NCBI RefSeq assembly: GCF_000758305.1
Contig: NZ_CP009458.1
Span: 2,262,932-2,286,931 of the forward strand
From: Cedecea neteri
GTDB taxonomy: Bacteria; Pseudomonadota; Gammaproteobacteria; Enterobacterales; Enterobacteriaceae
Direction of reading: 5' to 3'
DNA length: 24,000 bases
A program made the position numbers. This document shows, in pieces, positions 13,500 to 24,000 of the stretch (position 1 is its first letter; each line of letters begins with the position of its first letter).

Positions 13500-16400
13500 T
13501 GATCTCAACGGCACGTAATAGCAGACGCAGGCTTCAATAAACGCTGGATTGCCCCCGGCCAGAATAGCCGGGGGCAGGGATCACTTATCATTCAAGAGTT
13601 TTACCAACTGGTTAATGCCGTCCAGCGACTTTTGCCAGCCGGGCATTCCGTCCCAGCACGCCGGAGCGGGGGTGGTTTTGACATACAGGGTCGGAACATC
13701 ATTAATCAAAAAACCGCCGCTGCGCAGGTAAAAGCCCTGTAGATCGCAAATGCGGCTGTACTTACCCGCTCCTGGCGTCATGAAGCTGGCAATTTTTTGC
13801 AGGTCCGTGCGGGTGGCTACCAGCCCTCTTGCTGAGGTAGTACTTTTTATCTCATCAGCCACCTGCGCAATGGTGCCTGCCTCGATAGCGTCATCCAGGT
13901 TGACGAATTTCCCCTGGCTTACCCAACTGGCCAGGTAGCCTGTACAGGTTTTGGCTTTTTCAGTGGCACAGTTGAGCGGCGCCAGCAGGTCGGGGCGAAA
14001 ATCGACCGTCGCCAGGCCGGACTGTTTCACCTTTGTCAGGTTGCTAACTTCCTCTTTAATCAAGGTTTCGCAACTCTTGCCGTCATAGTCGGTATTCTGG
14101 CAAACCAGCAGGGCAATCGTAGGGATACTGGCTAGCTGGCAGGCCATTTTATCCTCACCTTTGGGGGTGGCGGAGCAAAAGGAGGCATAAGGAATATTGG
14201 GTTTTATTTTGTCTATTTTGGCGGCGGCCTGGGAGAAATCGTCGGCATAGCTGTTACTGACGGAGGCAAACAGCAGTGCGGCGATGCTGGCGGGCAAAAA
14301 GTACCGGGTATTCATCGTGTTGCTCCTGTAACTGATGTTTCGTGGAAAGTGCCAGCCCCAGGGCTGGCGGCGCGCTGTGCATGATGAGTGCAAATGGCTT
14401 TGATCACCTGCTCAACGAGAATATCGGGTGCAGTATCTGGGGAGGATAAAGCGGGGCTAATCGCCTGTTGCTCCGGCTGTGTCACTACGCGCAGCGCTTC
14501 GCCATACATCGCGTGAAGCCGCTGTGCGAGTACGGTGTGCTCGGCCGGGCAAACTATCGTCACGCTACCGTCCCAGGGGGCAGAGTACTTCGCGGGCGGC
14601 GGGAAGTGCTGGCTGAAAGCTGCACCATGGCGAACCATGCGGAGTTGTTGCAGCCGCTGGACGTTCTGCGAGTAATACGGATTGGCGGCAATATGTTCCT
14701 GCTGGCGACAGTAACCGGCACTCAGGGGATGATAAAGATGCCAAAGTGGGCGCCCGGTGTCGTGGGTGAAGGCCGCGGTGCCCAGTACGCTGGCCTTGTG
14801 GAACCAGGCATTATCCTCGCCCCCCCAGCCAACAAACGTCTCATCCATGCCGCCGTGGCGCAGGACAAAATCAGTCCGCGCCAGCACGGCACCACCCTGT
14901 GCGCCACTACGTTGCTGGAACACCGGCGAACAGGCTTCCGGTCGACGTTGTTCAGCCTGCACCTGCCGGCTTTCTTCCTCGCTGAGGAAATTGATCGTAC
15001 TCCAGGGGATCAGGCAGTCGAGTTGCCGCCTCTCGCACTCCTGCCAGGCCAGGCGGATAAAATCTTGCGGCAGCAGCAAATCCGCATCCAGCCACAGCAG
15101 GTAGCGGGTGTGCACAAAAGGTAAGGCGATGTTCAGGGCTCGCGCTTTGCTAAATGGCGATGATGTACAGGCGAACAGGTAATCGTCGGCAAGTTCCGTC
15201 GCAACGGCCTGTGCATGAGGCTGGTTATCCAATTCGACGACCAGCACGCGGCGCACGTCAGGCTGCTGTTTGAGTCCGGTTAACATACATTGCAAAGCCG
15301 CCAGCCGGTGCTCTCCGGCGAACGGCACGATCACGCTCACACCCTCATCTAGCTCTGCGGGAGCCGACAGATGCGGCATGGCGGGCGCGTGGTGAAGTAG
15401 CGGCGCTCGTGGAGGCAGAGAAGAATGTGTATTACCCAACAGAGCCTGTATCGCCGGTAACCAGAATTGCGGCCACTGCTCGGCAAAATCCCAGTGTTGT
15501 TGTAGCCAGGCCCGGTTTTGCAAGCCTCGCTCGCGCAGGTGCTGTGCGCCAAGTTCTATCAGCTCGCTGAGGACATTTTCCAGCGTATCCAGACTGGCGC
15601 AAACAAAAGGGGAGCTGGCGTCAGGGGTGCAGCGCTGTAAAACGGCGGCGATGTCGGGTTTCAGCCCCAAACCGTTAACCACGACCGCACCTGCCGCCAG
15701 GCCTTCCAGGCTGTTGCGATGGTAGCTGCCGGTGACACACTCATCGATAACGATATGGGCGCGGCGTTTCATCTCCATCGATTGTGTAAAATCTACCTGC
15801 CCGGCTTCCAGCGTCAACAGGCGTAGCGGATAGCGCTGTGCCAGTCGCCTCAGGATAGCCATTGTTCGTTGGTAACCTTTGCCGTGCCAGTACAAACGAT
15901 GATTGGCCGGGTACTCGTCATGTTTCACGCTCGGCGTGTAAGCAATGGTCACCGTGGCCTCTTTTTCGGCATCGTCAAAGAGCGGATTCCACAGTGGCAC
16001 CGGGTTCGGTACCGCCTGCCACTGGGCGAATTCTTCCAGCGAGGCCTGATACTGCGCTACCACCAGCCCTGGCATACCGCGCGCGACAAACTGTCGATCG
16101 ACATTGCTGATGTAATTATGGGCGAGGGTAATCACCGGTTTATTCGCCAGCAATGCCTTGTGCTGCGGCGCGGTAAAACCGTTATGCACGATCAGCAGAT
16201 CGGCCGTCTCCAGCAGGGCGCAGGCGATATCCGGCTGCTTTTCCCACTCCACTTCACGCTCAAACCGCACGCCATTGCCATAGTGATTTGTCGCCCATAC
16301 GGTGCGGCACCGATGCGGGGTGCAATGCTCAATGCACTCGCTCAACAGTTTGGGCACTCCGACAACTGGCGTGGTGGCATAAGAGACGATATTCAGGGAT

Positions 16401-22400: not shown

Positions 22401-24000
22401 CTGCAGCGCGGCCAGCGATTTGGCGCGTGAGAACAGCGCCTGCCATTCCTGCGAATCGTTTGATAATGGACTTAGTCCTGGCGCAAGAGGGCCGTTGAGC
22501 GAGGCCGGTGTCCCTTTACCGATATGAAACGTGTGGTGGACGGTGGTGTGGAATGAAAGATGGATAGTAAAGAACACCACTTTCAGCGACACGCTGACTC
22601 TTACCGAAGCGGCAATCGGGATTATCGTCTGATAACCGCATTCAAAGGCAACGCCAGCGCTGACGCTGAAACTGACCAGTACAGAGGCTTTGATGATAGC
22701 CAAATCGACACAGCCCTGCAGCACGACGGAAATTGACGCGCTGCCGGCGAACCAGTAGTGATCCGGCTTATTGGCTATCGAGCTCCCGCTGGCTTTCCAC
22801 GCCAGCAGGCCCTGGAAACTGGCGGAGAGATTGACCTCCAGACTGGCGCTGAGAGGCCCGGCATTAATACTGATCCCGGCCGTGACCGCGACGCCGATAC
22901 CAAATTCAAGGATGGGGTTGTAGTTGACGCTCGGCAGCGCGCCGGGGTTATCGCCACTGCGTAATTTGGCAAAGTAGAACCCCGCCCAGCCGGTAAGAAT
23001 ATCGAAAGAAACGCCGATAGCGTTATTCGGCGTGACCGGCCAGCCGACGTTAATGCGGAAGTCGCCATTGGTATAAATCCAGGCGGAAAAACCGGGCAGG
23101 ATGAGAATAAACCCTTCCAGCGGAATCCGTCTCATGCCGTAAGGCAGGCTCAGCGCGCCGTAGTAGACCCCCAGATTAGGCCCCAGTTTTTGGTAGAGGA
23201 TTTCAAACAGCAGGCCGCTGAAAAACGACGGTGGGCTGGTCATCGGAATGCTGATTTCGAGACCATACATCGCCGGATCGTTAAACAGCATCCGCAGACG
23301 CAGCTCGCGCAGCCGCATATCCGCCGCGATAAACCAATCGCGATCCGGTTTGTAAAATGTTTTTGCCAGCTCGGTAATAATGGTTTCGGGATCGCTGCCC
23401 ACCAGTTGCGTTTCCAGCTGATTAAAAATGATCTCCATCGGGTTGCCGCTGGCAGGAAGTTTCACCGTAGGGCCAACTCGCTGGCCAATCCCAAGGTAGT
23501 TCAACTCGAATGAAGAGAGAGAGTTCTGGGCGGGCAGCGGGAAGGGGAAATTCACCAGCTGTTCTTTGCTTTTTTCTGGCGTCGGGCTGCCCGTTGCGAG
23601 CAGTGTATTACCGCTGCTGACCGTGGTTTTGATGCGTGCTTTTACCGTCAAGCCGTCGCCTGCGCCGTCGTAGCCGATCATCAGGCCGAGAATCGTAATA
23701 TCCGGCTCGATAGTGATGTCAAAAGGCCCGGCGTTATAGTGCGTTCCGAGGCGCAATTCTTCTGCAAGCGTGAGCTGTAAAAACGAGCTTGTATTGCCAG
23801 TGCTACGATCTGGCGTGACCCACAGCGAGGGAATAATCCCCACGTCCATTATCTTCTGCCATGGTCCGGGGGGGATCTCTGGCAGGCCCGTTCCAATCAC
23901 TGTTTTCAACTGGCTACTGAACAGATCCCAGATATCATTCAGGGAGATAGGCTCGGCGGTACTAAGCGAAAACGAGACTGGCCCGCCAGCCACCCGCAGG

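Follow-up and report, generated by a model that had tools for sequence, protein, structure and literature searches.

A giant unannotated protein in Cedecea neteri belongs to a widespread gene cassette in which Ser-Pro motifs co-vary with a glycosyltransferase

A 24,000-nucleotide stretch of Cedecea neteri DNA (contig NZ_CP009458.1, positions 2,262,932 to 2,286,931; hereafter the window) ends in three closely packed minus-strand genes. They encode a giant protein (hereafter the giant; 17067..24000), a soluble, multi-domain glycosyltransferase (GT) of 912 residues (14312..17050), and a 244-residue protein with eight cysteines (c244; 13581..14315). A first-pass annotation had read them as a compact operon forming a dedicated machine, in which an orphan giant is glycosylated, or carries a glycan polymer, with the help of an exported accessory factor. 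The packing itself was confirmed: the TGA stop of the giant gene (17069–17067) is followed by a 16-nt spacer (17051..17066) with an AAGGAA Shine-Dalgarno sequence, then by the GT start codon at 17050, and the c244 start overlaps the GT stop in an ATGA (14315–14312). In their packing, the three genes look like a single transcription unit. A GC-rich hairpin with a 9-bp stem (GCCCCCGGC/GCCGGGGGC, 13551..13575) is present where the operon had been said to close, but it has no T-run and failed a terminator scan. It lies between the end of the operon and the end of a convergent permease gene at 13502, a position that makes a role as a bidirectional terminator possible.

As first described, the giant reading frame is still open at the window edge, after 2,310 codons. 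A 99%-identical contig (L001) extends the locus leftward and places an ATG 20 codons past that edge, where it matches the N-terminal consensus of the giant family (MT...L...G, 24 residues ahead of GGP). From this match and the lengths of its relatives (2,314–2,400 aa), the giant is nearly complete in the window, with 2,310 of about 2,330 codons. L001 also adds six co-oriented genes upstream of the giant, giving the order sm158, sm122, sm121, b1201, s98, s157, giant, GT, c244. Three of them encode small, beta-rich paralogues (sm; 158, 122 and 121 aa), and the others encode proteins of 1,201 aa (b1201), 98 aa (s98) and 157 aa (s157). On this gene order, the window's three genes are the tail of a putative nine-gene operon and not a unit of their own. 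The same order is found in Erwinia sorbitola, without c244.

Scanning one genome per species yielded 74 further loci, and we searched six-frame open reading frames (ORFs) of the loci with iterated hidden Markov models (HMMs) for each component, counting over 76 loci that come from many phyla. The most frequent partner of the giant is b1201 (71/76), followed by s157 (59/76), sm (29/76) and s98 (27/76), while a related GT follows the giant in only 21 loci and c244 accompanies it in 4, plus the window and a metagenomic locus (L087). The expectation that the three window genes would travel together therefore failed in part, and with it the picture of a dedicated three-gene machine; by the same counts, the conserved core is b1201 and the giant, usually with s157. 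In three loci (L049, L072 and L074, from a Hyphomicrobiales metagenome-assembled genome, Pseudobacter and Dyadobacter), b1201 and the giant are fused in one ORF of ~3,100–3,300 aa (at ~6,500–16,500 in each), and these Rosetta-stone fusions indicate that the two work together. The pair also occurs on plasmids of Lysinibacillus, Paenibacillus, Mycetohabitans rhizoxinica, Tistrella and Burkholderia, where a small hypothetical gene precedes it and the giant is sometimes split into two pieces or expanded to 4,120 aa. No homology between b1201 and the giant was detected. By contrast, s98 is homologous to s157 (hhalign probability 84%, E 8e-6), and both weakly resemble giant residues 23–102. We found no other conserved neighbour families around the cassette loci.

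The best named relative was Raoultella lignicola (95%), and a search of 5,426 complete E. coli genomes gave no match. The enterobacterial sm proteins contain many N-x-S/T sequons, which are not conserved across the family, and N-glycosylation of these proteins was rejected on that ground. Between the second and third sm genes, L001 also has a perfect palindrome with a 12-bp stem (ACGCCTGAATAA...TTATTCAGGCGT, 1663–1689), in a region where the gaps between sm genes measure 155–205 nt; it may be an attenuator that sets small-protein stoichiometry.

The giant is not an orphan as had been supposed. More than 200 homologues of 2,220–2,475 aa align over its full length, from Enterobacterales, Microbulbifer, Xanthomonas, Burkholderia, Alphaproteobacteria, Acidobacteriota, Gemmatimonadota, Actinomycetota, Bacteroidota and others, and they are labelled only 'hypothetical' or, in some sources, 'LysM domain-containing'. 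Its most conserved part is an N-terminal signature domain (window aa 160–510; 22470..23522, minus strand), with 60–83% identity across phyla and predicted beta-hairpins of 18–21 residues. Searching this segment with phmmer against 1.84 billion representatives of 50%-identity clusters returned at least 1,060 clusters at E≤1e-3, of which 451 reached E≤1e-30. They come from many phyla, and most of these proteins are 2,000–4,400 aa long. The signature domain defines a superfamily of unannotated giants. Distant members of 3,500–4,400 aa (P0178, P0195, P0242 and ~70 more) carry 4–13 genuine LysM domains inserted after the signature domain, amounting to 255 copies across 74 representatives among the matches listed. 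These LysM-rich giants, from Bacteroidota, Actinomycetota and other groups, match the window cassette in signature domain (E 1e-40 to 1e-52), in gene order and in having b1201 as a partner, but they have long N-terminal extensions and usually no GT, whereas the window subfamily lacks LysM and includes one clade with a GT and Ser-Pro motifs.

The giant is acidic (net charge −76), and in every core protein S/T/N/P/G are abundant and K/R/E scarce. Screens of the giant and the other core proteins for a signal peptide, a transmembrane segment or a Walker A motif found none, and neither Tandem Repeats Finder nor profile self-alignment detected internal repeats in the giant, in agreement with the first-pass annotation. 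No C.EQ motif was found, and the C-terminus is conserved rather than polymorphic in the family alignment. Pfam and NCBIfam scans assigned the giant to no family. More broadly, searches of Pfam, NCBIfam, PHROGs, PADLOC, PDB sequences and folds produced no match that explains any core protein, the giant, GT, c244, sm, b1201 and s157, searched against the PDB by sequence and by profile, returned GT-A matches only, and the searchable literature yielded no description of the cassette. Homology to a characterised family such as Tc toxin A subunits, AsmA/TamB transporters or known adhesins, named at the outset as the finding that would speak against a new system, was likewise not seen with Pfam, NCBIfam or Foldseek.

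Structural prediction of the two halves of the giant with AlphaFold2 gave models of differing confidence. The N-terminal half (mean predicted local distance difference test score, pLDDT, 67.8) contains a small beta-alpha-alpha-beta unit, beta-sandwich-like segments, a seven-strand block and long helices; the block consists of seven amphipathic strands of 18–21 residues at aa 329–493, inside the most conserved region of the giant. In the C-terminal half (pLDDT 76.6, predicted template modelling score 0.60), beta-sandwich domains and helical hairpins follow one another, and the model is reminiscent of Ig-like or macroglobulin-like beta-sandwich arrays. A Foldseek search of the PDB returned no match for either half that was significant or global, and a search of BFVD with the N-terminal half gave none either. 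The non-significant neighbours of the N-terminal half are porins, ushers and MACPF pores (E≥9e-3, TM-score ~0.1), and those of the C-terminal half are A2ML1, complement C4, integrin alpha and Gram-positive adhesins (E 8.5e-5 to 1e-2, TM-score ~0.1). At such TM-scores, we set aside the beta-barrel/porin, MACPF, A2M, complement and integrin likenesses as generic. A degenerate LysM in the giant, either at aa ~1075–1115 or in the N-terminal beta-alpha-alpha-beta unit, was also considered and was unsupported by a LysM HMM and hhalign.

The GT, in which screening found no signal peptide or transmembrane segment, had been described as a fusion of three glycosyltransferase folds. This holds for its C-terminal domain (aa 572–757; 14780..15337, minus strand), a GT-A domain with Glycos_transf_2 and Glyco_transf_7C matches, of which the former (PF00535) reaches 33.4 bits over aa 572–700 (cut-off 23.3) and is present in 12/12 homologues. 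The N-terminal domain (aa 8–224; 16379..17029, minus strand) is weakly MptE-like (the former DUF115), with PF01973 matching 8/12 homologues below the Pfam threshold (best E 0.029) and a PHROG sialyltransferase match at E 4.5e-5. In the middle domain (aa 230–560; 15371..16363, minus strand) a GT-B-like 'HRNSLEGLAAGAVVV' motif was noted by eye; this segment matched no Pfam or PDB profile, and hhalign aligned it only weakly (P 0.02) with the Glyco_trans_1_2 region of the GT in locus L007. Three folds in one protein are plausible on these profiles, with one of them, GT-A, demonstrated. Further weak profile matches of the GT-A domain include GmaR, B4GalT7, chondroitin synthase and polypeptide GalNAc-transferases (GalNAc-T2, E 0.06–0.12).

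The enzyme varies across the family. Thirteen of the 21 GT-positive loci encode the three-part protein; six have in common with it only the N-terminal ~210 aa, joined to other modules, and two only a GT2 domain. In L007 the N-terminal domain is fused to Glyco_trans_1_2, a lectin-like domain and GT2. Other GT-positive loci hold different multi-domain GTs in the same slot, and some loci have extra GT genes. An exact-sequence look-up found neither the window GT nor c244 on record. From its distribution, the GT is an accessory of one clade and not a core component.

What links this accessory to the core is a short motif. The N-terminal tail of s157 contains [G/A/S]-S-P in 21/21 GT-positive but only 3/28 GT-negative loci when a loose 31-residue window is used; the three exceptions have their Ser-Pro at other positions, and counting by aligned column gives 18/21 GT-positive loci. 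In a neighbour-joining tree of the signature domain, all GT-positive cassettes fall in one clade, within which three GT-negative lineages are nested, and all three lack the s157 motif: Citrobacter freundii lies inside the enterobacterial group, Microbulbifer beside it, and Puniceibacterium with Loktanella beside Azospirillum-like cassettes. The C. freundii cassette has a patatin gene after the giant, no GT and no Ser-Pro tail, while the 56%-identical metagenomic cassette L087 has a GT and the tail 'GSPSGSP'.

We extended the comparison to alignments of s157, b1201 and the giant over 39 cassettes, retaining alignment columns in which 80% or more of the GT-positive cassettes have a dipeptide, no nested GT-negative cassette has it, and no more than 20% of the other GT-negative cassettes do. 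Eight Ser-Pro sites passed, one in s157, two in b1201 and five in the giant. In a control over all 400 dipeptides, GS, IG and PV passed at one site each and the remaining others at none, including the equally frequent AA. Normalising for composition gave the same picture: the giant averages 31.2 Ser-Pro against 17.3 expected in GT-positive cassettes, 10.8 against 12.5 in nested GT-negative and 9.5 against 11.9 in other GT-negative cassettes, and b1201 averages 19.5 against 9.7, 7.7 against 6.9 and 4.2 against 6.1, respectively. In GT-positive proteins, Ser-Pro is over-represented about twofold, whereas GT-negative proteins are at or below the expected value. In the window giant, 32 Ser-Pro occur where 16 are expected.

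Four of the conserved sites were mapped on the minus strand of the window. The GSPASP loop (aa 1061–1066; 20802..20819; pLDDT <50) has Ser-Pro in 17/18 GT-positive and 0/17 GT-negative giants and is a candidate O-glycosylation site. The EASPQH loop (aa 1581–1586; 19242..19259) has it in 18/18 GT-positive giants in a column-window test, the DTSPQK loop (aa 1780–1785; 18645..18662) in 16/18 GT-positive and 0/17 GT-negative giants, and the HSPAGSPG loop (aa 1922–1929; 18213..18236), with a double Ser-Pro, in 15/18 and 0/17. Three of the four mapped sites fall in predicted segments with pLDDT <50, which are likely loops. At giant residue ~1463 (~19,600), the window reads AASQGSD where L001 reads AASPGSD, a strain-level change that removes one Ser-Pro.

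The slot downstream of the giant holds other genes as well. The patatin-like phospholipase of C. freundii (L086, 17024–18136) follows the giant in a cassette located between ychF and treA-like genes; a subtilase overlaps the giant's end in L057, and a PLD-like protein and a GT2-TPR-GT1 protein lie downstream of it in L072 and L069, respectively. In Solirubrobacterales, a tyrosinase-VWA protein comes directly after the giant in one locus (L022, 16891–19797), and in another a hemerythrin gene 4 nt after the giant is followed by a membrane-anchored multicopper oxidase/cupredoxin (L035, 16949–19488); these two unlike copper phenol oxidases may represent non-homologous replacement of a cross-linking activity. 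L087 (20017–23179) encodes, in order, the GT, a 152-aa protein, c244 and a 635-aa thaumatin-domain protein with a signal peptide. A signal peptide or membrane anchor is thus found in c244, the thaumatin-domain protein and the multicopper oxidase. The phenol oxidases, GTs and protease would fit enzymes that mature a protein material, and the lipases would fit an attack or release function.

The third gene of the window, c244, had been described as Sec-exported with eight cysteines; the cysteine count is correct, and a signal peptide is apparent by eye (MNTRYFLPASIAALLFASVSNSYA|DD). It has no Pfam or NCBIfam family and only 14 homologous clusters. The GT is followed by c244 in Raoultella, Brenneria and an Erwinia sp., as it is, after the intervening 152-aa gene, in L087. 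In Methylobacter and one other lineage, c244 occurs with no cassette gene nearby. The Methylobacter homologue (L082, 7530–14251) has orphan genes (796 aa and 238 aa) around it and a Pel9A-like beta-helix protein next to it, surroundings that suggest a separate secreted, carbohydrate-related context for this protein. On its distribution, c244 is a late enterobacterial add-on, peripheral to the operon and outside its core.

We propose that the operon encodes a conserved multi-protein assembly, that the GT of one clade O-glycosylates Ser-Pro motifs of this assembly, and that the assembly is probably surface-located or released, an explanation to which we give an even chance. Its core would be b1201 and the giant, usually with s157 and often with s98 and one to three sm proteins. 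The giant would serve as a non-repetitive, beta-rich scaffold, in which a highly conserved N-terminal domain of long hairpins is followed by helical stretches and a series of beta-sandwich domains. The soluble GT would act, most likely in the cytoplasm, as an accessory maturation enzyme, modifying serines of [G/A/S]-S-P in exposed loops and linkers of the giant and b1201 and in the N-terminal tail of s157, and a short glycan would then be built up by its several GT domains; the eight-cysteine secreted protein would be a late addition in Enterobacterales. O-glycosylation of Ser-Pro in exposed loops of the three proteins is the simplest reading of the covariation, which lends indirect support to the early guess that the giant is glycosylated. 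We weakly infer that the assembly is a structural or adhesive particle, either exposed on the surface or released, and not an enzyme complex of the cytoplasm, given the S/T/N/P/G-rich composition, the predicted beta-sandwich arrays, the LysM domains of distant members and the exported accessory neighbours.

Several observations weigh against this proposal. The covariation is drawn from related, non-independent sequences, with contrasts from three nested lineages only, and no GT domain is common to all GT-positive loci (L013 and L024 share GT2 only, and six others only the N-terminal domain). Of the 32 Ser-Pro in the window giant, only 10 lie near low-confidence segments, compared with a background of 23%. 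The signature domain is modelled with modest confidence (pLDDT 50–78). Pfam detects no LysM domain in the window giant or its close homologues, even those named 'LysM'. Finally, the core proteins have no signal peptide or known secretion signal and the family spans monoderms and diderms, which makes an extracellular site less certain.

Among described systems, the cassette comes near dedicated cytoplasmic protein-glycosylation pairs. As in HMW1/HMW1C, serine-rich repeat (SRR) adhesins with GtfA/B and further GTs, and autotransporters with the heptosyltransferases TibC and AAH, a soluble GT is encoded beside a very large putative substrate that does not look cytoplasmic, modification would precede export, and several GT activities would build a short glycan. 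Unlike those substrates, the cassette proteins have no signal peptide, two-partner secretion domain, LPXTG motif, autotransporter barrel or repeats. The GT falls outside the GT41, GT4/GtfA and BAHT families, with only GT2-type and weak MptE-like matches, and its putative sequon, Ser-Pro in scattered loops of three proteins, is also unlike theirs. Maf flagellin glycosyltransferases carry an MptE-like domain, PF01973. The weak PF01973 signal in GT homologues would fit a similar cytoplasmic Ser O-glycosylation of a structural protein without a signal peptide, but that signal stays below threshold and belongs to a domain fused to two GT-like domains; nonulosonic-acid genes are absent from the locus, and no flagellin gene was found in any cassette locus. 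Polypeptide GalNAc-transferases are eukaryotic Golgi enzymes with a GT-A fold and a lectin domain that prefer Pro near the acceptor. The cassette GT would share with them the GT-A domain, a Ser-before-Pro acceptor and sites in disordered linkers, although the profile similarity is not significant.

Among systems built on very large proteins, Tc (ABC) toxins also have operons of very large proteins (~2,500 aa plus 1,000–1,500 aa), horizontal spread and sometimes a plasmid location. However, Pfam, NCBIfam and neighbour-family searches detected no VRP1, TcA/TcB-binding, neuraminidase-like, SpvB or RHS features in the giant or the upstream proteins, fold similarity is absent, and the giant is predicted to be beta-rich where Tc proteins form an alpha-helical shell. 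The giant differs from AsmA/TamB/YhdP transporters in having no N-terminal transmembrane anchor or Pfam match, and in its AlphaFold2 model of discrete beta-sandwich and helical domains instead of a full-length beta-taco. It differs from bacterial alpha-2-macroglobulins in having no A2M/MG Pfam domain or thioester motif; the likeness to them is that of generic beta-sandwich arrays. For phage-tail-like or contractile systems, the core proteins gave no PHROG match, and the cassette was found neither by tblastn in 50,697 phage records nor in IMG/VR contigs. PADLOC defence models matched none of the nine proteins.

The strongest competitor, which we nevertheless consider unlikely, is a two-component toxin or antagonism complex in which copies of the giant's hairpin domain come together as a beta-barrel pore or translocator, b1201 is its partner, and the variable downstream gene, whether GT, patatin, PLD-like, subtilase or thaumatin-like, supplies cargo or an effector. 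The seven amphipathic strands invite this idea, as does the fact that the only fold neighbours of the N-terminal half, non-significant as they are, are beta-barrels and MACPF pores. Effector-type classes do occur in the downstream slot (patatin, PLD-like, subtilase, thaumatin domain), the distribution is patchy, often plasmid-borne and suggestive of horizontal transfer, and the LysM arrays found in distant members might attach to the wall of a target cell. But the Ser-Pro covariation ties the GT to the structural proteins themselves, not to a target; libraries and neighbours revealed no toxin, immunity, Rhs, PAAR or secretion component, and toxin-like polymorphism is missing from the giant's conserved C-terminus. 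The same site-specific covariation in three proteins is left unexplained if the GT instead makes a free or lipid-linked polysaccharide that the giant scaffolds, nucleates or carries, with no Ser-Pro glycosylation at all. That model, which draws on the likeness of a multi-domain, GT2-containing enzyme to chondroitin synthase and TagF-like enzymes and on the extra GT genes of some loci, is improbable in our estimation, as the GT has no transmembrane segment and the cassette no flippase, polymerase or export gene.

Another account would make the assembly a structure inside the cell, or a system against phage or stress, and would treat the association between Ser-Pro and the GT as a by-product of shared ancestry and composition. 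It would accommodate the lack of export signals in the core proteins, the patchy and mobile cassette with its occasional two-component neighbours, and the dependence of the covariation on a single GT-positive clade. The by-product element is opposed by the 400-dipeptide control and by the composition-normalised twofold Ser-Pro excess, and the intracellular element by a composition atypical of cytoplasmic proteins and by the LysM arrays of distant members; with no PADLOC match and no NTPase or nuclease motif to point to defence, we rate this account as no better than the polysaccharide model. Least credible of all is the self-contained three-gene machine of the first-pass annotation, with the giant as substrate, its GT, and the Cys-rich protein as an obligatory exported factor. 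Tight gene spacing and the conserved GT-then-c244 order, with its 152-aa insertion in L087, argue for it, but the six upstream genes provide far more conserved partners, c244 is missing from E. sorbitola and from all cassettes beyond the enterobacterial lineage and L087, and it exists apart from the cassette in Methylobacter and one other lineage. The co-occurrence data already largely refute it.

If the proposed glycosylated assembly is real, a giant family invisible to domain databases would gain an operon definition, a partner set and a first functional handle. A simple [G/A/S]-S-P sequon read by a soluble GT would add to the few cytoplasmic protein-glycosylation systems known from bacteria, with possible use in glyco-engineering. 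The plant-, soil- and fungus-associated hosts, the plasmids and the varied accessories (GTs, phenol oxidases, protease, lipases) would then point to a matured extracellular material or weapon. At its broadest, and here we are more tentative than about the assembly itself, the cassette would be a phylum-spanning apparatus (at least 1,000 clusters, pairing ~1,200-aa with 2,000–4,400-aa proteins) in which one clade has its own Ser-Pro O-glycosylating cytoplasmic GT, which would make it new on two counts, as a glycosylation system and as a class of surface-borne or released nanostructure, perhaps aimed at the glycan walls of bacteria or fungi. Distant members with LysM arrays, and neighbours that are thaumatin-like or oxidases, hint at such a target. 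More generally, covariation between an accessory enzyme and a short motif can nominate substrates where homology gives nothing.

Regulatory genes recur near the cassette. In six Bacteroidota loci (L028, L053–L055, L061 and L074), a TPR/HisKA_3 sensor kinase and an ORF of ~230 aa, a putative response regulator, lie downstream of the giant, and a response regulator and kinase flank the Tistrella and Burkholderia plasmid cassettes (L079 and L081). The recurrence of these neighbours hints at dedicated regulation of the cassette.

Positions 1000–5400 of the window form a low-GC island (34–38% GC, against 51–59% elsewhere in the window) that looks horizontally acquired; it contains a type VI secretion TssB/VipA-like gene (1028–1528, minus strand), an EAL-domain gene (3529–4233, minus strand) and several ORFs without a Pfam family (2484–3328 and 4707–5378). 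Between 5584 and 13502 lie genes for a LacI-family regulator, a GH2 beta-galactosidase of 1,030 aa and a DUF386 (YhcH/YjgK/YiaL) protein, then two tandem paralogous amino-acid permeases of 477 aa each, identical at 247/478 residues.

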